This document shows positions 7,824-52,282 of a stretch of 64,000 nt of DNA, one piece after another. Within the stretch, counting starts at the first letter, position 1. Every line of letters starts with the position of its first letter. Made by a program: the position numbers and the translations under genes. The stretch spans positions 4,804-68,803 of the IMG/VR virus record IMGVR_UViG_3300014204_000181. One strand, given 5' to 3'. The notes below the pieces were generated by a model. The model had not been told where the DNA came from. It did not search any database and worked only from the letters and a program-made list of their open reading frames with translations. This stretch comes from a virus. Lineage: Duplodnaviria > Caudoviricetes.

Positions 7824-7874
7824 GATGGTTCCTTTCCGGAGCGGCAAGGATCGCCCCCCGCCGCCCCTGGTGGT

Positions 7875-8365: not shown

Positions 8366-8367
8366 GG

Positions 8368-19998: not shown

Positions 19999-20544
19999 AT
20001 GGCTTACAAGAAATTTGATGAAGCTACCAAAACGGTAGCGCAGTCGCCTCGCAAGGTAGGTGATGCCATTCCGGTTGAATCAGTCCGGAGGGCCATCCAG
20101 TCAATATCCAATAGAATCCTCGGTGGAACAGGCGGTACCGGTGCAACATCCGTTGTTTCCGCTTGCGGGACCGGTGCAACGGGAGGCCTCAAGTGGGGCA
20201 ATACCCTTCTGGCAGTCATCAACGGACGTTTCGGCACCCTGCTCTGTGCTGACAACCTCGAACTGCCCAAGGGCACCCAGTCCAAGAACACCTATGTAAA
20301 GTATCTCATTTCGGGTGGGTTCGGTACCGGTGGTACCGTTACTGCCGGCAACGAAGGCACTGGCTCAACAACGGCCCTGCTTCCGGATTGCCCTGATGGT
20401 CATGTGGCAGTGGGTTACATGGAGTACCAGGCGAATACCGGTTACGACTTTATCCGCACAAACCGCACTGTTACAGGCGGCGCCGCGGCTACTGCCGGAA
20501 CTGCGTCATTTGCCAATTTGATCCATATGCCCTACAGCGAATAA
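19999..20544 (+). CDS. Putative head decoration/virion protein, Gly-Thr-rich
   Basis: Follows the MCP; AGGAGG RBS; GGTGGTG, GTGGT and GTGSTT tracts. Confidence 0.65.
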   Translation: MAYKKFDEATKTVAQSPRKVGDAIPVESVRRAIQSISNRILGGTGGTGATSVVSACGTGATGGLKWGNTLLAVINGRFGTLLCADNLELPKGTQSKNTYVKYLISGGFGTGGTVTAGNEGTGSTTALLPDCPDGHVAVGYMEYQANTGYDFIRTNRTVTGGAAATAGTASFANLIHMPYSE

Positions 20545-20630
20545 CAATATATCCGTCGTCGTCCCCTTTAACCTGGCAGGGAGTCGTTTGTGGCTCCCTG
20601 CCCACAGCCTAAAATGAGGGAGAAAAAATC

Positions 20631-20984
20631 ATGGCGAAGAAAGATAAGGTACCTGAAACCCCGATGTTCGTCAGTGCACAGGGGCATATAAGGGACAGGA
20701 TCATCATTCATGAAAGCACGAAAATCCCGCGGGAAGGTATATTTCTTTCCCTGAACGGATTTGCGTTCCTTGCGAAAGCAGGGGTGGAGATTGATCTTCC
20801 GCGGCCGGTAAGGGAAATGTTGGATACCCGTATTGAAACTGAAACGTTTCAGGATGAAAACGGAGAAAGTCACGTACGGCACATTCCCCGAATTACCTAC
20901 ACCCTGGTAAAAGCCGGCGTTAATTTGCCGCCCCCGACAGATGACCAGGTGTCTGCAGAAGAAACAGCTGGCCAGGAAGGTTGA
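20631..20984 (+). CDS. Hypothetical virion-module protein
   Basis: 117 aa, GAGGGAG RBS. Confidence 0.7.
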   Translation: MAKKDKVPETPMFVSAQGHIRDRIIIHESTKIPREGIFLSLNGFAFLAKAGVEIDLPRPVREMLDTRIETETFQDENGESHVRHIPRITYTLVKAGVNLPPPTDDQVSAEETAGQEG

Positions 20985-21733
20985 CGCTTATGATCGGGCA
21001 AGAGCTGATTACGCACATGCGGGAAAGCATTCTTGATGATATCGTGCTGCCTTATTTGTGGTCCGATACAGAACTTTTACGCTTTCTCAATTATGCGGAG
21101 GTTCAGGCCTGTCGACGTGCGCACCTTCTCATAGATGGTTCCACGGGTAACGATAACGGTACCGCGGCCACTGCTTCCACTGCCGGCCAACGGCCGTTAT
21201 GCACCTTGACTGTCGTCGCTAACCAGGCGGCATATACCTTGAGTCGTTTGATCCTCCAGGTGAAAAGGTGCCAGTTGCAGTCGATGACGATTCCGCTTGT
21301 CGGGCCTGTCACGTATCCTGAACTGGATGATGTGGTGTCCGGATGGATGGGGACAGGTGGCTTAATCGGCACTGCCGGCTCCGGAGGTTCACCGACATAT
21401 TACCTCAATGAACCTGGGAATACCGTTACTTTTGTCCTGGCGCCGTCTGCCGGCGATATCGCTAACCTTGTCGTTTCAAGACTTCCCCTTTCTCAATTTA
21501 CTTTACAAACCTCGCCGGAGATTGATGATCGGTACCATGTGGACCTTTGTGATTGGGCGGCGCATCTTGCGTACAATAAGCCGGATTCGGACACGCTCAA
21601 TTTAAACTTATCAGCGTTTTACGAGAAAAAATTCACTGCCACGTTCGGGCCTCTTCCTGATGCATACAGCGAACGCATGAGAAAAACCATTGCCATGCAG
21701 GAACGGATGCGGCCTCGAACCTTTGGAGATTAA
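20981..21733 (+). CDS. Putative head-tail adaptor/connector protein
   Basis: PYLWSDTELLRFLNYAEVQACRR...PEIDDRYHVDLCDWAAHLAYNKPDSD pattern; start may be ATG 20990. Confidence 0.7.
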   Translation: MTLMIGQELITHMRESILDDIVLPYLWSDTELLRFLNYAEVQACRRAHLLIDGSTGNDNGTAATASTAGQRPLCTLTVVANQAAYTLSRLILQVKRCQLQSMTIPLVGPVTYPELDDVVSGWMGTGGLIGTAGSGGSPTYYLNEPGNTVTFVLAPSAGDIANLVVSRLPLSQFTLQTSPEIDDRYHVDLCDWAAHLAYNKPDSDTLNLNLSAFYEKKFTATFGPLPDAYSERMRKTIAMQERMRPRTFGD

Positions 21734-21760
21734 TAGACCCCAATTAAGGAGGGTAATACC

Positions 21761-21937
21761 ATGGCTATAAAACAGACAGTAGAACACGCCAGAGTACAGT
21801 ATGGAACGTCTAACCCCAACACCGCCATAATAAGGACGGGAAAGATCGGTGACCTTTACGTTAATACCGATTTGAAAACCCTTTACTTCGCTTTCGGCCT
21901 TTCCGGAACACAGTGGGGTACTGCCGGCACAGCGTAA
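21761..21937 (+). CDS. 58-aa virion-associated micro-protein ending in GTAGTA
   Basis: AAGGAGGG RBS; GDLYVNT motif as in tail-fibre repeats; not in the track. Confidence 0.65.
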   Translation: MAIKQTVEHARVQYGTSNPNTAIIRTGKIGDLYVNTDLKTLYFAFGLSGTQWGTAGTA

Positions 21938-21954
21938 TCAGGACGTAACGGAGT

Positions 21955-21978
21955 GGGGCCTTCGGGCCCCTTCCTTTC
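21955..21978 (+). terminator. Hairpin with cUUCGg tetraloop (terminator-like)
   Basis: GGGGCC-TTCG-GGCCCC then TTCCTTTC. Confidence 0.6.
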
Positions 21979-22002
21979 ACCTTCCATATTGAGGACAATG
22001 CT

Positions 22003-22389
22003 ATGGCTGAAATAACAACCATTTTCATGCTCAAGAATACGGCCGTAGGTACTGGTTCTGCTGGCGGCACCAACTCTTCCGATATTATAGACCTGCGCGA
22101 TATTAACAGGAAAAACAATTTCACCTTGTCTTATCGTGTCGGCGCGGCTGGTGCAGTATCAACGGCAGCTACGGTTAATTTCAAATATCTTCTTTCCTAT
22201 ACGAAAGACGGAACGTTTGCGGCTCCTATTACCGGTGACAAAGGGACTATTGGCACCGCTGGATCGGGCGCGGCAGGATCATGCGGATTAATCGGGTTTA
22301 CCCCTGTCATTGCTCCTTTCATGAAAATCCTGGCCATTGCCGGTACCAGCGGGACAGCGTTAGTGAGTACGGAGTTACATGTACAGTAA
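22003..22389 (+). CDS. Putative virion structural protein (Gly-Thr motifs)
   Basis: 128 aa; GTGSAGGT, GTIGTAGSG, AGTSGTA. Confidence 0.7.
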   Translation: MAEITTIFMLKNTAVGTGSAGGTNSSDIIDLRDINRKNNFTLSYRVGAAGAVSTAATVNFKYLLSYTKDGTFAAPITGDKGTIGTAGSGAAGSCGLIGFTPVIAPFMKILAIAGTSGTALVSTELHVQ

Positions 22390-22401
22390 AAGGAGCGGCA
22401 T

Positions 22402-22779
22402 ATGGTTATCAGACAACTTTCGATTACGAGAGGGGATTCACAGACCTATAATCTGACCTTCAAGAAGGCAGACGGCACCCCTTACTGTATAAAAAACTGG
22501 GTGTTATTCTTTACAGTTAAGTCTAATTATGCCTTTCCAGATTCCAGCGCACTTTTTCAAAAAATCATAACTACTTTTGACGATACTACTTCTGGTACGT
22601 CCGGCTCTGCAAATATCAACGTGCTTCCGGAGGATACTGTTAACGCGACTCCTGGTGTGTATGATTACGACATTGCTGTGCGCACGTCGGACAATAAGAC
22701 GCTTACTGTGATGAAGGGCAAGTTAACTATTGAATATGACGTTACCAATTCTCCAGGAACGGCAGGTACGGCACCATGA
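22402..22779 (+). CDS. BppU-like / Ig-like tail attachment domain protein
   Basis: ITRGDSQTYNLTF...GVYDYDI...TVMKGKLTI; ends GTAGTAP. Confidence 0.65.
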   Translation: MVIRQLSITRGDSQTYNLTFKKADGTPYCIKNWVLFFTVKSNYAFPDSSALFQKIITTFDDTTSGTSGSANINVLPEDTVNATPGVYDYDIAVRTSDNKTLTVMKGKLTIEYDVTNSPGTAGTAP

Positions 22780-23654
22780 CGACTGAAACTAAAATTGATG
22801 TTATTATTTCTGCTGAACGTGCCATTGAAGTTATTTTTACTCCTGGAAGTCCTGCCGGATCATCCGGAACAAGTGGAACGTCGGGCCTTGATGGAACGTT
22901 CTATGGTTCTTCGGGCACTTCCGGTACCTCTGGCCTTGGTTCATCCGGAACGTCTGGTACTTCAGCAACATCTGTTACTTCGGGCACTTCCGGTACGTCA
23001 GGCACGGATGGTTCACACGGGACAAGCGGTACGAGCAGCATTAGCACTTCCGGTACTTCGGGCACTTCGGGCATTGGATCGCACGGAACATCCGGTACGT
23101 CTGCAACAGGAGTAACTTCCGGTACCAGCGGCACATCATCTACGGGAACGGGAAGCAGTGGTTCGAGTGGGTCAAGTGGCTTACCTGGGTCGTCAGGTTC
23201 TTCAGGGACGGCAGGTACCTCTGGAACGTCCGGAAGCAGAGGAAGCGATGGAACATCCGGCACTTCCGGCACTTCCGGTACCTCTGGAACGTCGAATACT
23301 GCTTCAGGATCGTCAGGCACTTCTGGTACTTCGGGAACGTCCAGCTCTGCAGGATCGCACGGAACGTCCGGCACAAGTGGTTCACCAGGTAGTCATGGTA
23401 CCAGTGGGACCTCGGGAAGCAGGGGAAGTGATGGCACGTCGGGCACCAGTGGTTCAGCCGGTAGCCATGGGTCCAGCGGCACTTCCGGAGCTGGCTCTTC
23501 TGGAACATCTGGAACATCGCCTTTAGGTTTTACATCAGGAACATCAGGCACGAATGGAAGTCACGGCACTTCTGGTACGTCAGGGACTGGCGGTAGCTCC
23601 GGATCATCAGGAACGAGTGTTTTGGATTTTCTTGCAGTACAGATATTCTCATAG
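22776..23654 (+). CDS. (Gly-Thr-Ser)n low-complexity fibre-like protein
   Basis: 292 aa, about 258 aa of G/S/T repeats between a short N-terminal strand and C-terminal VLDFLAVQIFS. Confidence 0.85.
   Translation: MTTETKIDVIISAERAIEVIFTPGSPAGSSGTSGTSGLDGTFYGSSGTSGTSGLGSSGTSGTSATSVTSGTSGTSGTDGSHGTSGTSSISTSGTSGTSGIGSHGTSGTSATGVTSGTSGTSSTGTGSSGSSGSSGLPGSSGSSGTAGTSGTSGSRGSDGTSGTSGTSGTSGTSNTASGSSGTSGTSGTSSSAGSHGTSGTSGSPGSHGTSGTSGSRGSDGTSGTSGSAGSHGSSGTSGAGSSGTSGTSPLGFTSGTSGTNGSHGTSGTSGTGGSSGSSGTSVLDFLAVQIFS
22845..23618 (+). repeat. Protein-level GTS/SGT repeat with degenerate codons
   Basis: Repeated GTSGTSG and SHGTSG units encoded by varied codons, so not a simple DNA microsatellite. Confidence 0.9.
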
Positions 23655-23663
23655 GAGGATCAC

Positions 23664-24032
23664 ATGGCTATTGCATATAAGAGAAAACTTTCAGGAAGTA
23701 CCAGTGGTTCTCCCTTAAGAATGGTAGGGACCGCGGCAACGTCAGGGTCTAATGGTACCATTCATGCTGCCGTAGCTGGAGAAGTTGCTGGCACATTCGA
23801 TGAAATATGGATATGGGCGGCAAATCAGGGGACCTTGGGCACATGTAATCTTACCCTGCAGTTTGGTGGGACGGCGGCAGAATATTGCATAACGGCTCCC
23901 ATACCTGCGGGAGTCGGCCTTGTTCCTGTCATTCCAGGATTGATCTTGCAGAATAGTTTGCTTGTCAGAGGTTATGCTGCGACGTCGAATATGATAGGTG
24001 TTATTGGATACGTTAACACAATGACGGACTAA
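23664..24032 (+). CDS. Conserved phage tail-associated protein
   Basis: KLSGSTSG...DEIWIWAAN...LTLQFGG...PGLIL...GYVN; AGGAGG RBS. Confidence 0.7.
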   Translation: MAIAYKRKLSGSTSGSPLRMVGTAATSGSNGTIHAAVAGEVAGTFDEIWIWAANQGTLGTCNLTLQFGGTAAEYCITAPIPAGVGLVPVIPGLILQNSLLVRGYAATSNMIGVIGYVNTMTD

Positions 24033-24034
24033 AA

Positions 24035-24658
24035 ATGCTTTATACTTATTTAAAAGATTTAAGGAATAGAATAGCTCTTGAGCCGGTATCTAAAAAGGCT
24101 GTTGCTATGACGTCACATCTGCGTTCGAGAAAAAGAAGGAATCTTATTGATCGTGTTACGTTAGATTATAGAGGGCCGGTAATTCCGATAGGATCATCCA
24201 AATTCACGGCGGTCGATGGATTGTTTTTATATGGCGACATTACTCCAACAGCATCTTCTCTTGCTTCTAAACCTGAATTGATAAATGGATCATTTGCTAC
24301 CTGTACTGACTTTTTAGGATATTATGAAGCTATGGGCGCTGATCTTGGCAGTGCTCAAACGGTGAGTATAATCAAATTGTTCATGAACTCATATTTTGAT
24401 AATCCTACGAGTTGGTGGAGTGACGCTTTTGGATATATGGCTATATATTCGTCGAGTGATAATTCAAGTTGGACCTTGCGCCAGGAATATAATCCAGGAC
24501 CGTTTGCGGCTGATTCGGGAACGTTATTCCATACTACTCTTACGCTTAATACTCCAGTGTCAGCAAGATATTGGAAGGTTGTGGTTAGTTCTGCTGGCGT
24601 TGCTACTGCTCCCAATTATGACAATAGTTATGGTGCTGAAATTGAATTATATTCGTAA
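24035..24658 (+). CDS. Discoidin/F5-8-like carbohydrate-binding domain protein (putative receptor binding)
   Basis: SSDNSSWT...VSARYWKVVV...AEIELY beta-sandwich signature; visibly AT-richer than its neighbours. Confidence 0.6.
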   Translation: MLYTYLKDLRNRIALEPVSKKAVAMTSHLRSRKRRNLIDRVTLDYRGPVIPIGSSKFTAVDGLFLYGDITPTASSLASKPELINGSFATCTDFLGYYEAMGADLGSAQTVSIIKLFMNSYFDNPTSWWSDAFGYMAIYSSSDNSSWTLRQEYNPGPFAADSGTLFHTTLTLNTPVSARYWKVVVSSAGVATAPNYDNSYGAEIELYS

Positions 24659-24687
24659 CAAAAAAAATTACAGGGGGGGAATAAACA

Positions 24688-25068
24688 ATGGTACCTACAT
24701 CTGATCCGGAACACTTGATTCTCATTCAAATTATGGTTGCAGTCATTCTCGGTCTTGGCACTATCGGTGGAGTAGTTGCTGGCTTGCTGCTCAATTCTCT
24801 CTGGAAGAAGGTTGAAGAGCATGATGTAAAAATGGAACATCTGGACAAAAAAAAGGTCAATGAAGAATATTGTGTTACATATCACCGTGCCATGGAGGAT
24901 AAAATGAAGGATGGCGCCAAACAGTTTGACGACATTGATGCTTGTATGAAAAGTATAGAGAAGACACAAACGCGGTTATTGCGGCGCCAGGACAGGATGA
25001 CCGTTTGCCTGGGCCTGATCGCACAGAAGTATGGGGTGGTAATGCCAAAGGAAGAAATGGACGATTAA
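24688..25068 (+). CDS. Membrane-anchored lysis-cassette protein (holin/antiholin-like)
   Basis: One N-terminal TM segment plus a coiled-coil; directly upstream of the endolysin. Confidence 0.55.
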   Translation: MVPTSDPEHLILIQIMVAVILGLGTIGGVVAGLLLNSLWKKVEEHDVKMEHLDKKKVNEEYCVTYHRAMEDKMKDGAKQFDDIDACMKSIEKTQTRLLRRQDRMTVCLGLIAQKYGVVMPKEEMDD

Positions 25069-25077
25069 GGAGGGATT

Positions 25078-25602
25078 ATGTCAAGGGACTTAGCAAAAGC
25101 ATCTCCAGGTATCAGAACTGTTATACAGGAGGTACTACGCCGTGCACCAGAAGAATTTTGCAACGCTGACCTGGAGGAAGAGGTTCGTGTTACTTTTGTT
25201 GACAGGACGATGGCAGAACAGACAGCACTATATGCCCAGGGCAGAAAAACTTTGCAGGAAGTTAATACTCTTCGCAAGTATGCGGGTATGGGTCAAATTA
25301 GTAATAAAGAAAATGGACGAAAAGTTACATGGACGCTGGCTTCTCGACACATTGTTGATCTTCATGATGACGACCCTGTTAATGACTTATCTCGGGCTGT
25401 TGATCTCGGATTATTTTGGCATGGTAAATATGTTACAGGAGAAACAGCGACTGAAACAGCCCACTACCTACGTCTTAGACAGTGGGTTCTCGAAGTGGCT
25501 AAACAGCTCAAGGACGAGGGGAAAGTAATAGTAGCCATTGGCATCGTACCCAAAGACTTACCCCATTTCCAGGAAGAGCCGCCGTATTCGACAGAAAGGT
25601 AA
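25078..25602 (+). CDS. Endolysin, M15-family peptidase
   Basis: RTMAEQTALYAQGR...VTWT.ASRH...RAVD...DLPHFQ. Confidence 0.88.
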   Translation: MSRDLAKASPGIRTVIQEVLRRAPEEFCNADLEEEVRVTFVDRTMAEQTALYAQGRKTLQEVNTLRKYAGMGQISNKENGRKVTWTLASRHIVDLHDDDPVNDLSRAVDLGLFWHGKYVTGETATETAHYLRLRQWVLEVAKQLKDEGKVIVAIGIVPKDLPHFQEEPPYSTER

Positions 25603-25605
25603 TTT

Positions 25606-26013
25606 ATGGGAGCAATCAAAGTTATATACGACATGATACCGAAGTGGTTACTGTTGATTCTGTTAATTGGATTCATCGCATTGTCCGGATGGTATGGAGT
25701 AAAATGCCAGTACCTTCGCATTGACAACGCAAAGTTGGCCAATGACAATAAAATCCTTACCGACAATGCTGTGATTCTCAATTCAAAACTTAGTACATGC
25801 ACGAAGAGTCTTGCAGCGGAAGCGGAGAATGCTAAGAAAGCAGAAAAGATTAACGCCAAAATGAGGGATTACAAAGTTGAGATATCCAAAATATGCGTAA
25901 AGGAGCCTACCGATGAAAAGGAAAAATCCGGCATTAAAGACGCTATTGATATTAGTAACCGTCTTTCTGATGCTGTTAATAAGCTGCGCGCCGGCGAAGA
26001 TAATTCAGAATGA
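25606..26013 (+). CDS. Rz-like inner-membrane spanin
   Basis: N-terminal TM followed by a coiled-coil, after the endolysin. Confidence 0.7.
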   Translation: MGAIKVIYDMIPKWLLLILLIGFIALSGWYGVKCQYLRIDNAKLANDNKILTDNAVILNSKLSTCTKSLAAEAENAKKAEKINAKMRDYKVEISKICVKEPTDEKEKSGIKDAIDISNRLSDAVNKLRAGEDNSE

Positions 26014-26194
26014 TCTGGTGGTGAATTGTACCTGGCCGATGATTCCTAAATTGTCTGTTACTTCTGCAGATGCACCGGTATCCCAGGTAATTCAGGACCT
26101 GCTTAACGATAAGAATGAATTAGTCGGTTATCTGGAAAAGGTGCAGGGCACAAGAAGTTGTTATGATAAATCTTTAAAGGAGAATGGCAAATGA
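25913..26194 (+). CDS. Rz1-like outer-membrane lipoprotein spanin
   Basis: Overlaps the i-spanin 3' end in another frame; signal peptide with lipobox LISC. Confidence 0.7.
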   Translation: MKRKNPALKTLLILVTVFLMLLISCAPAKIIQNDLVVNCTWPMIPKLSVTSADAPVSQVIQDLLNDKNELVGYLEKVQGTRSCYDKSLKENGK

Positions 26195-26409
26195 ATTACG
26201 TGAAATCGGTATTTGCGGCCGGCACGAAGGACTCGCTTATGCGTTTCCTGTCTGCATTCATCGTTTTTGATGTAGTATTGTCATGGAACATTGCCTGTCT
26301 TTTCGAACGCAAATTTCTGGATATTCCTTACGGAGTAGGTGCCATTCTTACCGCTGCCATCCTGGGGAAAGCCGTCCAGAAGTTTGGCGAAAAAGGTGGA
26401 AAAGATTAG
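26191..26409 (+). CDS. Putative holin (two TM segments)
   Basis: 72 aa, two hydrophobic helices, basic C-terminus. Confidence 0.6.
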   Translation: MNYVKSVFAAGTKDSLMRFLSAFIVFDVVLSWNIACLFERKFLDIPYGVGAILTAAILGKAVQKFGEKGGKD

Positions 26410-26426
26410 GTAAATTTGTTACAAAA

Positions 26427-26496
26427 TTCCCAGGATAGGGTAGCACCCGAAAAGATGGCTCCCTCACCGTCCTGCCTGGGAATCCTAAAATGAGGG
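26427..26496 (+). ncRNA. Candidate three-stem structured RNA with pseudoknot/antisense loop
   Basis: TTCCCAGG/CCTGGGAA closing stem; GGGT-AGC-ACCC; GAAAAG linker; ATGG-CTCCCTCA-CCGT; the loop is complementary to TGAGGG at 26491. Confidence 0.4.
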
Positions 26497-26529
26497 TAAC
26501 AATCTTATGAGAGGGCATAAGGAGGCCAA

Positions 26530-29500
26530 ATGTTTAAAGAAATTAAAGTACACGCTACAGCAAACGAACGAACGGGTTATGGTATCCATGCGTCAAGGTT
26601 TTTCCCTGCGCTGGACAGGATCGCACAGTCACATCCGGATGATTCCGGAACGGTGCACATTACGTTACTGGATGTTGTCACGGCATCGAGGCATGATCTT
26701 AAGTTTCATCCGTCGCCGTCGATCCTCTTTAATGTATGGGAATCAACCGAATATCCGGCGCCATTCCTGAAAAATCTGGAGAATTATGACCAGTTATGGG
26801 TACCGTCAGAATGGCAGCGGGCATGCTCTATCGCCCAGGGGATACCGGAAGAGGTTGTCAAGGTGGTGCCGGAAGGTGTCGATCCGGATACGTATAAGCC
26901 TGGCGAGTGGATTGAAGGAACGTCGGGTACCTCTGGCGGTACGTTCGACTTTGTAACTGTTGGCCAGTGGCAACCTCGTAAATCCACTCAGGAGATATGT
27001 GAGGCCTTCATTAAGGCATTCCCGCTTAAGGAGTATCCCAACGTTCGATTGCACCTGTCTGTTGATACCCTGTTTCCTTCTGATGAATATAAATCCACAG
27101 AAGAGAGGTTAAAAGCATATGGCCTGGAAGACCCGAGATTCGTTGTTGTTCACTTTGAAGAGAGAGAAGAATACGTGCGGCGGCTACAGAAATCCCATTG
27201 TTTTGTGTCGTGTGCGCGTTCGGAAGGATGGGGACTCCCCATCATCGAAGCAATGGCGTGCGGAATACCTACCATCGTGGCTGATTGGTCGGGCTCTACT
27301 GAATACGCCCGCGCTGAACATGGTATTAAGGTACGCATCAAGGAACTGATAAAGCCCTTCGGTATCTATCAGAACTGGGATGTTCCTGGCAAATGGTGCC
27401 AGCCGGATTACGACCACCTGGTTGAAGTAATGCAGGACGTCTATAAGAATTTCTACAAGTATAAGGACCAGGCGCTTAAGACTTCCGAATACATCCGGAA
27501 AGAATTTTCCTGGGATGCTGCAGCGAGAAAAGCCCATGCAGTTTTAGAAGAACTGCATGCAAAATGGAAATCGCTGGAAAGTGTTGCATTAGTGCAACAT
27601 GAGGGAAAATCTTCTGAGGATGATATCCGTTCGTACGCTGCAAAGCATGGGTTTGAAATTACCAGTATGCGCCCGCGGTCTGCTATTTTTACAGTGAATT
27701 GCTGGCCGAGCTCCCAGGAGAAAATGGATACCTTGATGGAAACGATTAAGCAGATCAAGGGTCTGGGGTATCCCGTTCTCGTATCTTCTCACTATCCGTT
27801 ACCTCCGGTGGTGACAGAGCTTGTGGATTATTACCTTTTCGAGAAGCGCGACATAATGAGCGGCGACGATAAACCCGTGTATTGGAGGACCCGTGTTGAC
27901 GGTAGCCAGGAAACTAAACAGGCCAGCGTTGAATACCAGGGCGTTGCCGCCCTAAACTGTTTTCGTAACTCTATTGATTTTTGTCGCGGCCGTTATGATT
28001 GGATATACGACATGAGCTCTGACATGGAGGTAGACCTGGAGCACTGGTTGCGACTGGTAACGTCCTCCACTAAACCCATGGTGTGTATTCCCTATGAAGG
28101 AAACAAAGACGGGATTGGTGGTGGTCTGTGGGCCGGCCGTACCGAAGTGCTGGATAAGGTAATCCCGCGCCTCAATTCCTGGAAAGAGTACGCTGATAAA
28201 TTCCCCGACCTGCGCTTTGTTGCTGAAAAATGGATATACGCCCATGTGGTGTCGACGGGTTATGACGTTCAGAACGAACTCGAGTGGATCAGTATTGAAA
28301 CCGTTAACCGGTTTGATAACGTCGATAGGGAAATATGGGATGATGACGATTTTGTATGTCATTTCATTGAAGGCCCGTTTCTGCAAATCCAGGGTATTTC
28401 CAGAAGGATGTATGATGTATCCTTCATCGATAACGATAATAATGATTCCGTCCTTTACGGACTCAAGCAGCAAGTGGGCTCCTGGAGCCGTCCGAATGCC
28501 AAATACTTCAAAAACTGGACGGTACAGGCGCACCTGGATGGTATCGAAAAGTATTCCCATAAACTGGACCTCAAGGGCAAAAACGTGCTTATTTCCTTTG
28601 GTTCTAAAGCCCTGGGAGATACGATAGCCTGGATGCCCTATGTTGAGGAATTTCGAAAGAAGCACGGTTGTAATATCTATGCATCCGGCTGGTGGCAGGA
28701 AATTTTTGACTATCCGGAAATTACATATATAAAACCAGGAACGAAGATAGAGAATTGCTATGCTTCCTATGCGGTAGGCTGTTTCGATAATCAGCCGGAT
28801 ATGAACCCAAAAAACTGGAGGGAAGTACCATTACAGAAGGTTGCTGCGGATATCTTGGGTATTGAGTATGTACCTATTCGCGCCAACCTCAAAGTGAAGC
28901 CGCATAATAATAAGTATAAATATGTATGCTTCTCCGAGTTTTCTACCATGCGCGGCAAGATATGGAATCGTCCTGGTGCCTGGCAAAAGATTGTCGATTA
29001 CCTTAACGATCATGGATATGACTGTATTTCCATTGCGAACGAACGTTCTATTCTTGCCAATATCAAGCAGCATAGCGGCCAGCCGATTCAGAACACCATT
29101 GCTGACATTTCCGGCTGTTCTTTCTATATCGGCCTCAATCATGGCCCTGCATGGTTATCTCTGGCGCTGGACAAACCGACGATTATGATTACCGGTATGT
29201 CCGAACCCTGGAACGATTTCCCGAATCCGTACCGTTTATCCGTCGATATCTGCCGGCCAGGGTGCTTTAATGATCCGTCCTTACCTATTCAACGTGGCTG
29301 GGAATGGTGTCCGAGAAACAAGGATTATGCGTGTACCCGCGACGTTACGGAAGAAATGGTCATAAACGTAATAGATAAGTTGATAAAGGAGGACACATGC
29401 CAGTTGCCATCACGAAACGCAAAGGTGGTGGATATCAAGTCAGTACCCCCAACGGTGTCCACGCAAAAAACACAACCCTCGAAAAAGCAAAGGCGCAAGA

Positions 29501-29562
29501 AAGGCTCCTTAACGCCGTCGAGCATGGATGGAAGCCGACAGGCAAAAAAGGTTACGGGATAG
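26530..29562 (+). CDS. Multi-domain glycosyltransferase: GT4 + central domain + Aah/TibC-like protein O-(heptosyl)transferase
   Basis: GT4 motifs VGQWQPRKS and SEGWGLPIIEAMACG; from about 28351, SKALGDTIAWMPYVEEFRKKHGC, FYIGLNHGPAWL, CRPGCFND...WCP...YAC. Confidence 0.85.
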   Translation: MFKEIKVHATANERTGYGIHASRFFPALDRIAQSHPDDSGTVHITLLDVVTASRHDLKFHPSPSILFNVWESTEYPAPFLKNLENYDQLWVPSEWQRACSIAQGIPEEVVKVVPEGVDPDTYKPGEWIEGTSGTSGGTFDFVTVGQWQPRKSTQEICEAFIKAFPLKEYPNVRLHLSVDTLFPSDEYKSTEERLKAYGLEDPRFVVVHFEEREEYVRRLQKSHCFVSCARSEGWGLPIIEAMACGIPTIVADWSGSTEYARAEHGIKVRIKELIKPFGIYQNWDVPGKWCQPDYDHLVEVMQDVYKNFYKYKDQALKTSEYIRKEFSWDAAARKAHAVLEELHAKWKSLESVALVQHEGKSSEDDIRSYAAKHGFEITSMRPRSAIFTVNCWPSSQEKMDTLMETIKQIKGLGYPVLVSSHYPLPPVVTELVDYYLFEKRDIMSGDDKPVYWRTRVDGSQETKQASVEYQGVAALNCFRNSIDFCRGRYDWIYDMSSDMEVDLEHWLRLVTSSTKPMVCIPYEGNKDGIGGGLWAGRTEVLDKVIPRLNSWKEYADKFPDLRFVAEKWIYAHVVSTGYDVQNELEWISIETVNRFDNVDREIWDDDDFVCHFIEGPFLQIQGISRRMYDVSFIDNDNNDSVLYGLKQQVGSWSRPNAKYFKNWTVQAHLDGIEKYSHKLDLKGKNVLISFGSKALGDTIAWMPYVEEFRKKHGCNIYASGWWQEIFDYPEITYIKPGTKIENCYASYAVGCFDNQPDMNPKNWREVPLQKVAADILGIEYVPIRANLKVKPHNNKYKYVCFSEFSTMRGKIWNRPGAWQKIVDYLNDHGYDCISIANERSILANIKQHSGQPIQNTIADISGCSFYIGLNHGPAWLSLALDKPTIMITGMSEPWNDFPNPYRLSVDICRPGCFNDPSLPIQRGWEWCPRNKDYACTRDVTEEMVINVIDKLIKEDTCQLPSRNAKVVDIKSVPPTVSTQKTQPSKKQRRKKGSLTPSSMDGSRQAKKVTG

Positions 29563-29582
29563 GAGGGAGTAAGCATGGCTGA
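29397..29582 (+). CDS. Small basic phage protein overlapping the glycosyltransferase 3' end
   Basis: AAAGGAGG RBS before ATG 29397; HAKNTTLEKAKAQERLLNAVEHG. Confidence 0.65.
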   Translation: MPVAITKRKGGGYQVSTPNGVHAKNTTLEKAKAQERLLNAVEHGWKPTGKKGYGIGGSKHG

Positions 29583-29889
29583 TGATATAAATACCTTGCA
29601 ACAGCGACTGAATGATCCAAACAGTGTTCTTAATCAGATAAGTAAACCTGCGCCGCCGCCGCCTCCATCCACCATGGATAAACTCAAAACTGCCGTAGGT
29701 GGTGCCGTCGACGCGACGACAAATGCAGCAAGTGACTTCCTTGAGTGGGGGAAGGGGAAATTCGGCATAAAGCCCAAACCGGTAGACCCTCAGAATATGT
29801 TGCAGGGTTTTGGCATGGGCGAAGTTGGCGGGAAGAAACTTATAGATCGCAACGATCAGCGGATAAAACAGGCGGTTGGTGAGCAATGA
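29575..29889 (+). CDS. Hypothetical protein
   Basis: GGAGGGAG RBS; 104 aa. Confidence 0.65.
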   Translation: MADDINTLQQRLNDPNSVLNQISKPAPPPPPSTMDKLKTAVGGAVDATTNAASDFLEWGKGKFGIKPKPVDPQNMLQGFGMGEVGGKKLIDRNDQRIKQAVGEQ

Positions 29890-29924
29890 TAACGTTTCTG
29901 GTGTCCCATAGAAAAGGGTGACGT

Positions 29925-30860
29925 ATGACAGCAACATTGTATAAGTCCCTGGGTCTGTTCAGCGGTGTTAATAACGTTGATGATCCCGTAGAACTTTCCG
30001 GTGAACGCATCCTCACTTCCGAAGGTTACAAATTCATCTATCCGCTTCAAATAGCTGAAAACGTTTATATTGATAACGAATATGGATTGCATTCCCGTGC
30101 TGGCTATGCCCTTGCGCTCGCGGGAAAACCTCATAGCATGTGGAGCAATCTCGACAAGTCTATATGCCTGTTCGTTGAAGGCTCTTCACTGTTCCGGTTT
30201 AATGAGGACGAAAGCATTACCCAGCTCGTTGCTGGATTAACTTTCGGCCTTCCCATGTCTTATGCCGAGTTTAATGATCGCATTTACTTTTCCAATGATG
30301 TGAATATCGGGTACCTCAAGGAAAATGTCCCGTACCAGATCACGGTACCCACTGCCCAGTTTAAACTTCCGTTGCCTCCAGGTAAGTTTCTGGCCGTCTA
30401 TCGGGCCCGTTTGTACGTCGCAAAAGGACCGGTGCTTTATATTGGCGATGCCCTTTCTGACTGCTACGATGTTCGCGGGAAACTGGCCAGCTTCCGTAAT
30501 TTCAGCTCTGACATTACCATGGTCCAGCCGGTGGATAACGGCATTTATGTAAGCGACTCCGAGCAGGTATGGTTTCTCAAAGGCCTGGGTCCTGATGAAA
30601 TGACCAGGGAGGTTGCCAATTCCTCGCCGGCAATACCTTACACGAACCAGTTAATAGGTGGCCAGTATGTCGGGGATGGCGCTAAACACGAAGACTTTGC
30701 TCTCTGGACAGGAGCCAGCGGCATCTGTATGGGTGACAGTGGCGGCGCTGTGGGCAATGTTACCGTTTCCAAATTCGTCATGTCGAAACATAACCTGGGT
30801 GCTGCGGTGGTGAAAATAACAAATAACGAAGCCTATTACATCAATACATTGAGGAATTAA
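29925..30860 (+). CDS. Putative tail tubular/stabilisation protein
   Basis: 311 aa beta-rich ORF (FSGVNNVDDP...LQIAENVYID) in the tail block. Confidence 0.6.
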   Translation: MTATLYKSLGLFSGVNNVDDPVELSGERILTSEGYKFIYPLQIAENVYIDNEYGLHSRAGYALALAGKPHSMWSNLDKSICLFVEGSSLFRFNEDESITQLVAGLTFGLPMSYAEFNDRIYFSNDVNIGYLKENVPYQITVPTAQFKLPLPPGKFLAVYRARLYVAKGPVLYIGDALSDCYDVRGKLASFRNFSSDITMVQPVDNGIYVSDSEQVWFLKGLGPDEMTREVANSSPAIPYTNQLIGGQYVGDGAKHEDFALWTGASGICMGDSGGAVGNVTVSKFVMSKHNLGAAVVKITNNEAYYINTLRN

Positions 30861-30862
30861 TC

Positions 30863-31312
30863 ATGGCACTAAGAGTATCTACCGGATTTAGAAACGGGCT
30901 TTTAACCGGAAATAATTTCTATACCATGCTCAACCAGGGCATTGTGAGATTGTATTCCGGAACAATGGGCACCAATCCTGATACCGGCGTCGCGGCTACG
31001 GCCCTGGTGACATTCGAGCCATTATACTTTCAGACCGCCGCCACTGCAGGAACGATTTTCAATGGTACGAATGCGGTAAACGGTACCGGAGCGGTGGACG
31101 GTACGGCTGGATATTTCCGATTAAGCGAGTACGCCGACGATCCCACTGTGACGTCAACCACAGTCGCCCGTATAGACGGTGTGGTAAATACCAGCACGGG
31201 AGATATGATTATGGGTGACAATTTGATTTCCATTGGTCAGGTGTTGAGTTTGCAGATCGCCAGGTTTGGATTTCCGGTATTAGCAGGTACTTCCGGAACG
31301 TCAGGGACTTAA
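30863..31312 (+). CDS. Small virion protein, paralog 1 (ends GTSGTSGT)
   Basis: MALRVSTGFRN...LYSG...GTAGYFR...RIDG. Confidence 0.75.
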   Translation: MALRVSTGFRNGLLTGNNFYTMLNQGIVRLYSGTMGTNPDTGVAATALVTFEPLYFQTAATAGTIFNGTNAVNGTGAVDGTAGYFRLSEYADDPTVTSTTVARIDGVVNTSTGDMIMGDNLISIGQVLSLQIARFGFPVLAGTSGTSGT

Positions 31313-31335
31313 TATAAACAAAGGAGGATATTATC

Positions 31336-31782
31336 ATGGCTTTCAGAATTTCACAGGGATTGAGAAATAAGATGTTGGGTACTGGCGGCTTGAAGGAACT
31401 GCTTGATGGTGGTTGCATTCGCATCTTTTCCGGCGCCCAGCCTTTAACTCCGGAAACAGCAGAAGCGGGTGTGTTGATTTCCACCATTAAGACTTCTTCC
31501 GGAACCGGTGGCCTCATATGGGGTACGGCAGCGAGTGCGGCAATTTCGAAAAGTGCCGATCCGTGGTCTGGAACGTGCGGTACCGAAGGCATTGCTGGCT
31601 GGTTCAGGTATTATGACGTTGCTGACTTCTACGGAGCTGATGCGGCAGGTACCGCTGTAAGGTTTGACGGTGACGTGGGAGTAACCACTGGCGACCTCAA
31701 ATTAACCAGTACAACGGTTAAAGTAAGTGCTCCGGTGGTCATTGATACCTGCCAGTTTAGCATTGCGCAGAATCAGAGTTAA
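31336..31782 (+). CDS. Small virion protein, paralog 2
   Basis: MAFRISQGLRN...IFSG.QP...GIAGWFR...RFDG. Confidence 0.75.
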   Translation: MAFRISQGLRNKMLGTGGLKELLDGGCIRIFSGAQPLTPETAEAGVLISTIKTSSGTGGLIWGTAASAAISKSADPWSGTCGTEGIAGWFRYYDVADFYGADAAGTAVRFDGDVGVTTGDLKLTSTTVKVSAPVVIDTCQFSIAQNQS

Positions 31783-31793
31783 GGGAGGTAGCT

Positions 31794-32192
31794 ATGGCTA
31801 TCAAAGTAAGCGTACCTGCGTGTAATGCAATCGTTGAAGCGTTGACGACACAGTTTTGCACTGTCGATGCTTTCTGCCGCGTGTATGCAGGAACACAGCC
31901 TGGAACGGCTGGTGGTACTGTAGGTGATACCCTTATTACGGAAATTGCCGGAGTATCCTGGAACAGTGCTGTCGGTGGTACAACGAGTCTTGCTGGATCA
32001 AGTTGGGGCAGTGCGGCGACAGACGGGACTGCAGGATGGGCGCGAATATTGAACAGTACCGATGAAACTATGTGCATTGACGGAAATTGCGGTACTGCGG
32101 CCACCTGTGACTTCGTTATAGATAAGGAAGTCGTTACCGTTGGCGATGATATGTACCTCACGGCGGCAGATATAATCATGCCTGAAAGTTAA
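31794..32192 (+). CDS. Small virion protein, paralog 3
   Basis: MAIKVS...VYAGTQP...GTAGWAR...CIDG. Confidence 0.72.
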   Translation: MAIKVSVPACNAIVEALTTQFCTVDAFCRVYAGTQPGTAGGTVGDTLITEIAGVSWNSAVGGTTSLAGSSWGSAATDGTAGWARILNSTDETMCIDGNCGTAATCDFVIDKEVVTVGDDMYLTAADIIMPES

Positions 32193-32205
32193 AGGAGGCA
32201 CACAG

Positions 32206-33156
32206 ATGCCCGCAATACTTCCAGCCCTTCAATTTCACGGGGAACTTACTGACGCTACCGAAGCGCCTACATCCGTAATCATTATGGGTGTGCTTCCATC
32301 TATATTCATGGAGCTTGCCCAGGGAAGCGTTCTCGATGTTGAAATAAACAATTTCACTTTTTCTGCGACGGGTTATCTTGGCGTAAACGGCAGCATTCCG
32401 GACTTGAATATGTCCTTTGGGCTTACTATGTCCGGCTCCCAGGCGTTGTCTGGTACCCTGGAAGTTGCCGCCCTCAAGATGGCTTTTACCGGCACTGGCA
32501 ATGTCGGCCAGATAAGTACCTTCAACAAATCCATTGCGTTTGCTTTTACTGCTTCCGGCAATGTCGGCAATATCGGAACGATGGACTTGGTGTTCAATCA
32601 CGTCCGTTTGTCTTCGGCTTCCGCGTATATTTCGCCCATTGGCAATCTGCAGCTTACCCTGGGCCTTGAATTTTCAGCTACCGGCAGCAGCACGATATTC
32701 AAAAGCATGGTGCTCAATCTTAAGAATAATGCTCTTACCGAATATCTTTCTTACGTTTTTAACTCCATGTGTTCCTTCAATGGCAAACTGTACGGTGCGG
32801 CCAGTAATGGAATCTATGAGCTCACGGGCGAAGAAGATGCTGGAAGTGATATCCCCTGGCGTTTCCGTACCGGCAAGCTGGACCTTGAAACGGACAACGT
32901 TAAGAAATCCCTTCGATACGCCTGGCTGGGTTACAAGGCCTCTGGTGAGCTTACCCTGTCCGTATTCGACCAGGACGGCAACCAGTATGATTACATAGTA
33001 GAAAATATTCGTAATACGGATGGTGGCATACGCGTAAAGACTGGTAAGGGCATTCGGTCCCGTTACGTGGAGCTCCAGCTTGCCAACATAGACAATGAAA
33101 CGATTTCCCTTGATAAAATGAGGATTTTTACTGAACTTACAGGGAAGAAACGTTAA
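32206..33156 (+). CDS. Putative tail structural protein
   Basis: 316 aa; C-terminal YVFNSMCSFNGKLYGAASNGIYEL...GKGIRSRY domain. Confidence 0.65.
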   Translation: MPAILPALQFHGELTDATEAPTSVIIMGVLPSIFMELAQGSVLDVEINNFTFSATGYLGVNGSIPDLNMSFGLTMSGSQALSGTLEVAALKMAFTGTGNVGQISTFNKSIAFAFTASGNVGNIGTMDLVFNHVRLSSASAYISPIGNLQLTLGLEFSATGSSTIFKSMVLNLKNNALTEYLSYVFNSMCSFNGKLYGAASNGIYELTGEEDAGSDIPWRFRTGKLDLETDNVKKSLRYAWLGYKASGELTLSVFDQDGNQYDYIVENIRNTDGGIRVKTGKGIRSRYVELQLANIDNETISLDKMRIFTELTGKKR

Positions 33157-35027
33157 TGGCATATCGGCGCATACGAACGGGGAGTCTTGCTGATGCTAAT
33201 GCGGCGATTCAGTATCAGAAAGCAAAGCTGTTCCTTGACAAAACCGGACTCGTAAAGATGCGCTACCCGTTGCAGGGCGGTGGGAGTATAACGGTCCAGC
33301 GTTACGGGGAAATGGAAATAGTTGATATCGTCGGAGGATTTAAGGGTGTTGGTGATGGTTATATTGTCGGCCTGGTTGATGTGGGTACTTACGGTACTGA
33401 TGGAACGGGAGGGACGTACGGCACTGCATCCTGGAGCGTTTATTATCAGACGTTCACCAGGAACAAGGAATCGGCCCAGTGGGATTTTGTTTTCGGTGCA
33501 TTACAGACCCAGGCAGGAACGGACTTCTCGCTTGGCAGTGCTGCAGGATGGCAGTATAAAAACAATGCCCCCCTGCTTGGTTACAATACTTATAATGATT
33601 ACGGCACGGCTGTTTACCTCTACGGAACGTCGGGAGTGGGTTATAAATATGAAGCGGAAAAGTGGTGTGCTCATGGAGTTAACACTTATAATATAGGAAA
33701 TAAGATTTTCTTTAATGGTGTCGGACTTGCATATGCTACAGGGACTTTCCCATGGATAGCAGACGGGAATTATGACTATCGTGAGATTAATCCGGCAAAG
33801 TTTCTGTATAAGATAGTCGGAGTGGTTGGCCATCCAACGTGGGTTTATACTCTATGGCCATGGTGCAAATTATATGATCTTAATACGCTACAGGTACAGC
33901 TTTTATCATGGGGAACAACCGGCTATCCCAGCTCTGTTACTGCGTACGATGGAACAAATTCAACGATTGATGTGGGTTATTTCCAAACGGGTTTTGCTCA
34001 ATCGCATCATGACAGCCGCGGCAAGCCTTATTATGAGGATTCGTATTATTTTACAACCACAGGCTCTTCGGGGACGAGTGGAACAGGAGGCACAAGCAGT
34101 ACAAGCAGTACGGTCGGCACTAACTGGGCGCCTACCTGGACCTTTTCCGGCACGTCTTGGGATGGAGTGGGTACAATTCCCGCTGATCTTAACACGTACG
34201 CATATTGTGACAATGGGACTTATGGAACAACCGGAACGCAGTGCGTAGGTACGAATAGTTACGTTGTCGATGGAACAAACTGGAATTTTGAATGGACGTT
34301 CATACTACCGAAAAAGGTTATCATCCCCTTAGATTATAACTGGGACAGTTACCATGCGGGGGAGCTGAAGGGGTATCCACCTAATGCATCCATATCGTTT
34401 GATTGCGTGGACGTGTTTGATGAATTTGTAACTTTTCCGGAATTGCTCCAGATAATAACAAACTGGAATAATAGCTTAGAAGGGGTTATAGAATATGAAG
34501 CAGTAAAATGCACGGGTGTCGGTACGGTAACTGCGTTCACTTTCGATACTCCGATTGCGGCAGGAAACGAAGGCAGTTTTTGGGCCTTTGACAATTATCC
34601 TTACTTATCACGGAAACGGACGTGGATAGGAGGCGTACACGGAACGGCGGGCACGATAGGGATTGCGCTTCCGGAAATACCTGGCAAGTTTTTTCCGCGT
34701 TCTAAACTGCATATGTCCGTTCACATGCGATGGGCAGATGCAACGATAGAAGGATTAAAGGTTTGCAGAAGGTTTTATTATGGGTATGAGTTTAAATATG
34801 GAACGGATTATACTGCAGGAGCGTATGGCACTTACGGTACCCGTTTTATCAATTCGCAAGGCGTTGGTATCAGCGGAAATGATTCCATGGGGTGCGTGTA
34901 TGTCAAAACCAATTTCCACCCTATACAGCAGTTTGAATACATTGATCCGAATGGTGCGCTGTCAGCACTGGTATTTCAATCGTCTTTCGGCTCCAATAAC
35001 GTCATTGCGGTAGGCTCACTGGGATAA
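33156..35027 (+). CDS. Putative tail spike/fibre protein with many Gly-Thr motifs
   Basis: 623 aa; GTYGTDGTGGTYGT, SGTSGTGGT, GTYGTTGT, GAYGTYGT. Confidence 0.65.
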   Translation: MAYRRIRTGSLADANAAIQYQKAKLFLDKTGLVKMRYPLQGGGSITVQRYGEMEIVDIVGGFKGVGDGYIVGLVDVGTYGTDGTGGTYGTASWSVYYQTFTRNKESAQWDFVFGALQTQAGTDFSLGSAAGWQYKNNAPLLGYNTYNDYGTAVYLYGTSGVGYKYEAEKWCAHGVNTYNIGNKIFFNGVGLAYATGTFPWIADGNYDYREINPAKFLYKIVGVVGHPTWVYTLWPWCKLYDLNTLQVQLLSWGTTGYPSSVTAYDGTNSTIDVGYFQTGFAQSHHDSRGKPYYEDSYYFTTTGSSGTSGTGGTSSTSSTVGTNWAPTWTFSGTSWDGVGTIPADLNTYAYCDNGTYGTTGTQCVGTNSYVVDGTNWNFEWTFILPKKVIIPLDYNWDSYHAGELKGYPPNASISFDCVDVFDEFVTFPELLQIITNWNNSLEGVIEYEAVKCTGVGTVTAFTFDTPIAAGNEGSFWAFDNYPYLSRKRTWIGGVHGTAGTIGIALPEIPGKFFPRSKLHMSVHMRWADATIEGLKVCRRFYYGYEFKYGTDYTAGAYGTYGTRFINSQGVGISGNDSMGCVYVKTNFHPIQQFEYIDPNGALSALVFQSSFGSNNVIAVGSLG

Positions 35028-35037
35028 GGAGGAAGCT

Positions 35038-36513: not shown

Positions 36514-36524
36514 AGGAGGATACC

Positions 36525-50146: not shown

Positions 50147-50172
50147 ATTAACCTCCAAAAGTTACAATTTTA

Positions 50173-50201
50173 TTGACTTCGGTATGCTTAACTGGTAAAG
50201 T
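50173..50201 (+). promoter_or_regulatory. Sigma70-like promoter for the HTH gene
   Basis: TTGACT-17 nt-TAAAGT, 33 nt upstream of ATG 50235. Confidence 0.6.
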
Positions 50202-50234
50202 GTTTCTCCACTTTTGAGGGAGAACCTATAGTAA

Positions 50235-50946: not shown

Positions 50947-50969
50947 GTTACTTTACCTCCGATGATTTC

Positions 50970-52273: not shown

Positions 52274-52282
52274 GCTTCCCTC

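Follow-up and report, generated by a model that had tools for sequence, protein, structure and literature searches.

A period-three Gly-Thr-x motif in the virion proteins of an uncultured podophage clade and its candidate link to a phage-encoded Aah/TibC-type glycosyltransferase

To our knowledge, protein glycosylation of the phage particle has so far been shown only in mycobacteriophages, and the transferases of other phages are routinely ascribed to DNA or O-antigen modification. The subject here is a repeated Gly-Thr-x unit, written (GTx)n, found in virion proteins of an uncultured tailed phage, together with a 1010-amino-acid (aa) enzyme of the same phage that carries a domain of the Aah/TibC type of protein O-glycosyltransferase. 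The phage (IMG/VR record IMGVR_UViG_3300014204_000181), known from metagenomes only, belongs to a podophage clade. The analysed stretch, referred to as the window, covers 64 kb of the 68.8-kb virus record, which has direct terminal repeats, and all coordinates are those of the window. An earlier note, made from the sequence alone, had pointed to Gly-Thr motifs and C-terminal tags in proteins encoded between 19999 and 35027, and had proposed that they form a short sequon for glycosylation.

Three described systems come closest. Known Aah/TibC enzymes recognise a strand-loop-strand structure without a linear consensus and modify mainly Ser (PMC3835316), while the TibC structure (4RAP/4RB4) presents Asp110 as the catalytic base and Thr226, Lys230, Arg286 and Trp305 as sugar-binding residues (PMC4358343). 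The phage enzyme has a homologous GT-B catalytic domain and would likewise be a cytoplasmic O-glycosyltransferase that hyper-modifies a repetitive, Gly/Ser/Thr-rich structural protein. It differs in being phage-encoded and fused behind a GT4 domain and a middle region, and in having virion proteins as its neighbours, with neither an autotransporter substrate nor ADP-heptose genes in the phage. Its candidate acceptor also differs, being linear and Thr-based.

The second system is virion glycosylation in mycobacteriophages (Freeman et al. 2023, as cited in PMC12619734), where phage transferases are reported to decorate virion subunits, with glycans at the C-terminal tails of capsid and tail-tube subunits. 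A phage-encoded glycosyltransferase within or beside the structural genes is the shared feature, the glycans of the present phage being predicted only. Host group and phage type are different, the major capsid protein of the present phage lacks the motif, and its carriers are small head-proximal, collar, adaptor, fibre and tail proteins sharing a defined period-3 motif.

The third comprises Thr-glycosylated collagens such as the GPT repeats of Bacillus anthracis BclA, Riftia cuticle collagen and Gly-Pro-Thr(Gal) peptides. A Gly-Pro-Thr peptide goes from random coil to triple helix once its Thr is glycosylated (PMC11923368). Thr glycosylation also stabilises Pro-poor collagen triple helices, the glycosylated Thr replacing hydroxyproline in this role, and has been invoked for Thr-rich bacterial and viral collagen-like proteins, glycosylated BclA being an example (PMC11923368). 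These collagens and the phage repeat have Thr-rich, Pro-poor Gly-X-Y triplets in common. In the collagens, however, Thr occupies position Y (G-P-T), whereas in the phage it occupies position X (G-T-S/A/G), and the phage unit is also found as isolated two-triplet motifs in globular proteins.

The Gly-Thr-x motif and its carriers

Compared with 1000 composition-preserving shuffles of each protein, Gly-Thr (GT) dipeptides are enriched, with z of 2.8-9.7, in ten open reading frames (ORFs), which are named here by their start positions: 19999, 21761, 22003, 22402, 22776, 23664, 30863, 31336, 31794 and 33156. For pooled counts, the collagen-like ORF 22776 was left aside and the adaptor 20981 added, giving ten non-collagen carriers. 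In these, two GT dipeptides separated by one residue (GTxGT) occur 21 times against 0.5 expected (~40-fold), and separated by four residues 10 times against 0.4, from which it follows that the unit is a period-3 (Gly-Thr-x)n. The same test on the ten carriers gave nothing comparable for TG, GS, GA, ST or TS. The remaining 52 proteins of the window (17,423 aa) hold one GTxGT altogether, and shuffles found no GTxGT enrichment in the window's replication, packaging (terminase), major capsid, portal, 3685-aa or sugar-pathway proteins, the 3685-aa protein having 16 GT against 18.6 expected. The earlier note's impression by eye that replication proteins lack the pattern is thus borne out. The motif excess in virion proteins is real and far above chance. 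GT dipeptides are also frequent (5 against 1.0 expected) in a scaffold-like protein encoded upstream of the capsid gene (17887-18885, plus strand), whose orthologue in one larger relative (G005:C1:39047-40069) has 5 GTxGT.

The pattern extends to the clade. GT enrichment is seen again in orthologous proteins of five larger relatives (G001-G005), and a census over six clade genomes yielded ~100 motifs in 43 proteins, with Ser, Ala or Gly as the usual x and with Gly and Thr again three residues outward on either side of the motif. The outgroup consisted of seven loci, from Pseudomonas phage Rollin, Pseudoalteromonas phage vB_Pun_Y3 and five IMG/VR contigs, with capsid proteins 41-64% identical. 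These seven loci contain zero GTxGT, even in fibres with 10-15% Gly and Thr. The pattern is thus not shared by tail proteins at large; the earlier note had named a lack of enrichment over generic tail proteins as a finding that would refute its proposal. Relative to these outgroups, the motif is specific to the clade of the window.

The 125-aa protein at 22402..22779 (plus strand; phrog_1084) ends in GTAGTAP, the tag lying at 22756-22776. Its homologues were listed as 120 clusters at 90% identity which, the protein's own cluster apart, are 55-78% identical to it; in 119 of the 120 listed representatives GT.G[TS] lies at most 4 residues from the C-terminus. At the five tag codons of 28 distinct related contigs, all four Gly, all four Thr and all four Ala codons are used. 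The tag peptide is kept while synonymous codons vary, which points to purifying selection on the protein and not on the DNA. Two DNA-level origins were rejected: copying of the tags from the fibre gene, with which the longest shared word is 12 nucleotides (nt), and a frameshift-type explanation at the junction of 22402 with the fibre gene, where a slippery sequence is absent.

An AlphaFold2 model of 22402, built on a 30-sequence alignment, is an immunoglobulin (Ig)-like beta-sandwich with a mean predicted local distance difference test (pLDDT) score of 78. An invariant internal SGTSG segment falls in a loop of this model, and tail residues 117-125, which include the tag, score below 50; the tag is accordingly predicted to be disordered and accessible. 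The closest folds are Bas63 connector chains (9MT4 G/H), the T5 tail-tip complex (7QG9 chains L/J), the DT57C baseplate (8HQZ) and the TP901-1 baseplate (4V96), at Foldseek E of about 1e-5 and template modelling (TM) scores of 0.63-0.67, while sequence similarity to them is lacking and tblastn against cultured phages found nothing. The Foldseek output carries no chain names; we take the 7QG9 chains to be collar p132 and the 4V96 chain to be BppU, that is, fibre-anchoring collar proteins. None of these matches is known to us to have a conserved C-terminal GTAGT tail. A fibre-anchor-type fold would fit the place of 22402 directly upstream of a fibre gene.

That fibre gene, at 22776..23654 on the plus strand, has a start that overlaps the stop of 22402 (ATGA) and encodes a 292-aa collagen-like (Gly-Thr-Ser)n protein that matches the Pfam collagen repeat PF01391 (67 bits against a gathering cut-off of 27.2, E 1.2e-18) and tail-fibre PHROGs. 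With 45 GT and 24 GTxGT it is the strongest carrier; it lies inside the interval of the earlier note but was not listed there. Its Gly-X-Y runs are interrupted repeatedly, and the sequence has little Pro and hardly any charge (G 27%, S 31%, T 20%). Most related contigs that reach past the 22402 homologue have a (GTx)n fibre gene next, which usually overlaps it by 4 nt; these fibres are 288-1428 aa long and vary at the C-terminus. A fused anchor-fibre form was sought among longer 22402 homologues and not found, which is weak evidence.

The 58-aa protein at 21761..21937 (plus strand) ends in WGTAGTA (tag at 21917-21934), and 10 of 10 homologues in related contigs end in WGT[AC]GT[AG] plus 0-2 residues. 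A third tag, GTSGTSGT at 31286-31309, closes the 149-aa tail-region protein at 30863..31312 (plus strand; GT 9 against 3.3 expected, GTxGT 3). This protein is the first of three paralogues with 25-29% identity; the extension is missing from the two others and from the G001-G004 orthologues, and a single-sequence scan of IMG/VR with the protein gave nothing. Terminal tags had been proposed to be additions that mark subunits. Comparison of homologues indicates this for 30863 alone, whose tail is the sole recent, lineage-specific extension among the three; the near-invariant tags of 22402 and 21761 are ancient features of their families. The two further paralogues, at 31336-31782 and 31794-32192 (plus strand), have internal GT runs including GTQPGTAGGT (GT 6 against 2.3 and 6 against 2.1), and their orthologues in the relatives have 2-4 GTxGT.

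The other carriers hold the motif internally or near the C-terminus. Just after the major capsid gene, the 181-aa protein at 19999..20544 (plus strand), a predicted beta-sandwich, has GGTGGTG, CGTGATGG, FGTGGT and a C-proximal TAGTA run (GT 9 against 3.5, GTxGT 2). Median counts in its 53 distinct homologues, 35-59% identical, are 9 GT and 2 GTxGT, which fall in conserved alignment columns; in its AlphaFold2 model (pLDDT 77.5), for which Foldseek gave no fold match, the motifs are mainly in loops. The SU10-type head-to-tail adaptor at 20981..21733 (plus strand; PF24175, E 2.8e-19) has two GT-bearing loops, NGTAATASTAG and GTGGLIGTAGSGG. It is weakly enriched in the window (3 against 1.7), while the adaptors of relatives are clearly so with 5-14 GT; GT motifs are present at these loops in 6 of 6 clade genomes and absent there from outgroup adaptors. 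The G004 adaptor (G004:C1:15052-16170) is 372 aa long instead of the usual ~250, owing to a ~120-aa insertion at the second GT loop that is itself rich in GT motifs (14 GT). At 22003..22389 (plus strand), a 128-aa protein contains GTIGTAGSG and a C-proximal AGTSGTA (GT 7 against 2.2, GTxGT 2), and among its homologues (30 distinct, from 33 contigs) GTSGT near the C-terminus is conserved in a subset. The 122-aa protein at 23664..24032 (plus strand; phrog_30535) has GTLGT (GT 6 against 1.8, z 3.5) and one homologue only in the related contigs. The 623-aa tail-fibre-like protein at 33156..35027 (plus strand) carries (GTx)3-5 runs, GTYGTDGTGGTYGT, GTSGTGGT, GTYGTTGT and GTYGT, with 28 GT against 8.4 (z 7.9) and 10 GTxGT against 0.1; it has no Pfam match, and no homologue was found in the five larger relatives. 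All motifs and C-termini quoted in the earlier note are present in these ORFs, and in the models available they sit in loops or disordered tails.

The carriers had been described as unrelated, and for most families this stands: hhalign between the families of 19999, 21761, 22003, 22402, 23664 and the tail paralogues gives probabilities of at most 15%, and the short aligned stretches are mostly centred on the motifs themselves. A common origin of the carrier families was rejected on these grounds, with the exception of the paralogues 30863, 31336 and 31794.

The transferase, the sugar genes and their company in other phages

The 1010-aa enzyme is encoded at 26530..29562 on the plus strand, which is that of the structural genes, between a putative lysis cassette and the tail genes. 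It consists of three parts: a GT4 domain at ~66-342 (PF00534 at residues 138-263, E 2.9e-15, 56.6 bits against a gathering cut-off of 26.4), a middle region without family assignment, and an Aah/TibC-type protein O-glycosyltransferase domain at 626-950. The last matches TIGR04414, the Aah/TibC "autotransporter strand-loop-strand O-heptosyltransferase" model, over model positions 27-373 of 374 at E 2.9e-57, and aligns to the TibC structure 4rap_A at E 2e-37. By sequence, the enzyme is a clear Aah/TibC homologue. TibC-equivalent positions were counted by hand from the alignment, with key residues taken from PMC4358343. The catalytic Asp110 as well as Thr226, Lys230 and Trp305 are identical in the phage enzyme, Arg286 aligns with Thr, Pro300 at the stereoselectivity position is replaced by Asn, and the four-Cys iron finger (TibC Cys339, 342, 358 and 370) is retained as C-x3-C ... 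WCP ... C with the first Cys shifted by one.

Orthologues of the enzyme are present in 5 of 5 larger relatives at 45-61% identity, and the cultured outgroups have no homologue. The expectation of the earlier note that the motif accompanies an Aah/TibC-like gene thus holds in every large relative, and no relative was found that carries tags without a transferase.

Genes for sugar supply and tailoring occupy the right arm of the window on the minus strand. The supply cassette at 48914..54075 encodes, according to Pfam, a B12-radical SAM enzyme, an NDP-hexose C-methyltransferase, a CDP-glucose 4,6-dehydratase and a glucose-1-phosphate cytidylyltransferase (TIGR02622 at 419 bits, above its cut-off; TIGR02623 at 289 bits), so that a pathway for a CDP-6-deoxyhexose is encoded; the cassette is mostly conserved in G001-G004. 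The tailoring and extension genes at 57411..63460 (Pfam, NCBIfam) comprise a CmcI/rhamnosyl-type O-methyltransferase, found in G001-G004; a second B12-radical SAM enzyme, with clear orthologues in G001 and G003 only; a stand-alone second GT4 (59730-60779), again in G001 and G003 only; and an 894-aa protein (60776-63460) that joins a GT2 glycosyltransferase to a radical SAM/SPASM-like domain, found in 0 of 5 relatives. An FkbM methyltransferase is also encoded. The phage genome contains no GmhA or RfaE domains (ADP-heptose genes), and therefore the donor sugar may be other than heptose.

The combination recurs outside the clade. Among 50,697 cultured or deposited phage records, 4 have a TibC-like domain, and three of these (two genomes) also have large (GTx)n genes. 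Microcystis phage Mel-JY01 (PP395634.1) encodes a GT4-TibC-like fusion at 4750-8430, and a DNA pattern scan found 40 GTxGTxGT matches on its plus strand and none on the other, of which 39 fall within 68-2163 and the last lies at 9368. Its annotated proteins lack GTxGT and had made it a candidate counter-example, which was rejected on account of the plus-strand (GTx)n gene at 68-2163. In GenBank, minus-strand hypothetical coding sequences at 1-651 and 739-2298 lie over this plus-strand (Gly-Thr-x)n collagen-like gene; the deposited coding sequences at 1-2298 look like wrong-strand ORFs over the repeat. The 735-kb genome LR756501 (duplicate LR756503) has ORFs of 2816 and 2372 aa with 433 and 60 GTxGT, and a 695-aa ORF with 6 GTxGT adjoins its TibC-like genes.

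IMG/VR was sampled by DNA pattern, giving 120 loci with a (GTx)4 run and, as control, 117 loci with the reversed pattern, which are mostly other period-9 collagen-like repeats. At E <= 1e-5, a TibC-like domain is present in 14 of 108 (GTx)4 records and in 1 of 103 control records (Fisher P = 7e-4; P = 1.3e-3 without the window's own clade). The sole control match itself holds 83 (GTx)3 runs, and the control becomes 0 of 102 if it is set aside. Median contig sizes are similar, 29 kb for (GTx)4 and 24 kb for control (first 90-91 records each). In six contigs chosen for runs close to a transferase gene (G011, G052, G067, G069, G070 and G087), the gene lies 0.3-4.5 kb from the runs in all six, as it does in Mel-JY01; in five of them the runs fall within called ORFs of 532-3679 aa with 11-261 GTxGT, while in G069 the simple ORF caller put the repeat region in the wrong frame. 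A crude test of proximity that assumes uniform placement gave a combined P of 4e-4 across 13 genomes. The new observation is this independent association of a TibC-like transferase domain with (GTx)n proteins across phage lineages. Full-text literature searches found no paper in which an Aah/TibC-like enzyme of a phage is tied to proteins of the capsid, to fibres or to collagen-like proteins.

Genome organisation and relatives

The plus-strand genes of the window follow the order large terminase (start 13386), a portal-sized ORF (start 15030; so placed by position and synteny, its family search being without match), scaffold-like protein, N4-gp56-type major capsid protein (start 18891), SU10-type adaptor, a run of small proteins and the collagen-like fibre gene. 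A putative lysis cassette at 24688-26409, recognised by eye through its sequence and location and lacking any family match, has holin-like, endolysin-like and spanin-like ORFs and stands amid structural genes, between the head and collar genes and those of the transferase and tail; in the outgroup vB_Pun_Y3, tail genes come directly after the adaptor. Downstream of the transferase are the tail genes (29925-37844) and the gene of the 3685-aa protein (37862-48919), all on the plus strand. Orthologues of the latter have ~1800-3600 aa in relatives, where some contigs are partial, and comparable giant genes in outgroups encode ~3400 aa (vB_Pun_Y3) and 2184 aa (Rollin). The ORF at 12244-13023 encodes a protein of 259 aa, which ends in a domain resembling Tad2 (Thoeris anti-defence 2; PF11195, E 9e-22) and has an N-terminal part without assignment.

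The capsid proteins of the closest cultured phages are just 34-41% identical to that of the window, while IMG/VR holds at least 79 related contigs with capsid identities mostly of 62-88%, and three at 46%. Terminase orthologues G001:C1:11493 and G003:C1:54712, 77-79% identical, are 758 and 817 aa long where the terminase of the window has 477 aa, a difference that suggests an intein or other insertion. Three clade proteins (P0097, P0147 and P0209) come from public metagenome-assembled genomes named Candidatus Wunengus, Methanoregula and Dehalococcoidia; these clashing labels are probably due to phage contigs mis-binned into such assemblies. The source labels agree on neither a host nor a habitat.

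Candidate roles of the motif

The reading favoured here is that (GTx)n is an acceptor motif for phage-encoded Thr O-glycosylation, with a probability of roughly 0.55. We infer that such glycosylation occurs, that the Thr of GTxGT is the site, and also the order in which the domains act, the sugar and the function as a coat. Late in infection the 1010-aa enzyme would be made from the structural operon, and in the cytoplasm its Aah/TibC-type domain would place a first sugar on Thr (or Ser) hydroxyls of exposed, extended GTxGT segments. The glycan would next be lengthened or decorated by the N-terminal GT4, other phage transferases and methyltransferases, which would draw on a CDP-6-deoxy, C- and O-methylated hexose made by the phage. 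Fibres would be the main substrate, as (GTS)n in this phage, and in this clade about ten virion proteins would have gained (GTx)2-5 versions in loops and tails that are accessible, so that the finished particle would bear a glycan coat on fibre, collar, neck and tail proteins. Of the short, convergently acquired sequon that had been proposed, a protein-level, clade-specific motif in loops and tails of several unrelated virion families stands, with its role in glycosylation as the conjectural part.

Several points weigh against this reading. The TIGR04414 score of 194.3 bits (195.6 for the C-terminal part) is narrowly under the curated equivalog cut-off of 200, the sugar-binding Arg286 of TibC is Thr in the phage enzyme, and the oligomerisation thumb (TibC 260-274) is shortened by two deletions, of 5 and of 4 residues. 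Since the known Aah/TibC enzymes modify mainly Ser and follow no linear consensus, the family would have no precedent for a Thr sequon of the GTxGT kind. Most (GTx)4 contigs, several near-complete genomes among them, show no TibC-like domain, and LR756504 has the domain but just two (GTx)3 runs. In other lineages the motif is limited to giant fibre proteins with neighbours that lack GTxGT; it is thus a peculiarity of the window's clade that many virion proteins have acquired it. The linkage could reflect common residence in tail-fibre regions, and the sampled contigs may not be phylogenetically independent. Finally, the GT-rich scaffold-like protein, which is not thought to be retained in the mature particle, misfits a pure surface-coat logic.

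A purely structural role for the triplets and a docking role for the tags remain serious rivals. The motif is equally a Gly-X-Y triplet unit, and sequence alone cannot separate the structural from the sequon role. The segments could be purely structural, of a polyproline-II, collagen-like or polyglycine-II type that provides rigidity or flexibility, with the transferase acting elsewhere. The strict period of 3 with Gly at every third position, the mainly small x residue, the collagen match of fibre 22776 and the many (GTx)n phage genomes without a TibC-like domain all fit this explanation. Two triplets at a disordered C-terminus, however, cannot make a triple helix, and the invariance of both Thr in 119 of 120 clusters of 22402 is hard to explain by backbone geometry alone. 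The fibre, Pro-poor and uncharged, has a composition that in model peptides needs Thr glycosylation to fold (PMC11923368), and the association with one specific transferase family is left unexplained. On balance a purely structural motif is unlikely, if the strongest of the competing explanations.

GTxGT tags and loops might instead be docking motifs for a common virion partner, for example in clipping the collagen-like fibre or another subunit to collar, neck and tail proteins during assembly. This would suit 22402, with a fold that we take to be that of fibre-anchoring collar proteins, its translational coupling to the fibre gene in most relatives and its tag at the very junction of the two genes. 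The same motif, however, occurs in head-proximal, neck and tail proteins, which are unlikely to have one partner, the fused anchor-fibre form was not found (weak evidence), and the link with the transferase is unexplained in lineages without small tagged proteins. Docking is improbable.

An equally improbable alternative is that the glycosylation genes serve host-surface or DNA modification and lie near (GTx)n genes by an accident of hypervariable tail-fibre regions. The literature assigns phage transferases of such regions to O-antigen or DNA modification (PMC7029224, PMC10202952), as do the aquatic-phage papers found in a literature search, and the sugar cassette and the structural genes lie on different arms and strands. 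The family of the domain, however, is known only as protein O-glycosyltransferases (PMC4358343), and the domain is present in just 1 of 103 control contigs (0 of 102 without the match that bears (GTx)n), although their other collagen-like repeats are likewise typical of tail-fibre regions. A by-product of composition, DNA repeats or chance in carriers rich in G and T was rejected and has a negligible probability, given 0.5 GTxGT in shuffles against 21, a TG dipeptide that is not enriched, diverse codons with at most 12 nt shared between tags and fibre gene, and equally G/T-rich outgroup fibres without the signal.

The acceptor reading can be widened to a more tentative claim, which we would put somewhat short of even: that GTxGT is a true linear sequon for widespread, previously unrecognised phage O-glycosyltransferases of the Aah/TibC type, with giant fibres as main substrates, and that in this clade it was convergently seeded into at least seven unrelated virion families, the whole particle being coated with a phage-made methylated 6-deoxy sugar. 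If true, this would assign a function to many "autotransporter O-heptosyltransferase" annotations in viral metagenomes and would provide the first linear acceptor motif for the Aah/TibC enzyme family. It would also explain why many aquatic and giant phages have unusual (Gly-Thr-Ser)n fibres without Pro, and give a simple sequence rule that predicts sugar-coated virion proteins. Such a coat would bear on phage stability, adhesion and immune recognition, and enzyme and tag together may form a portable tagging system.

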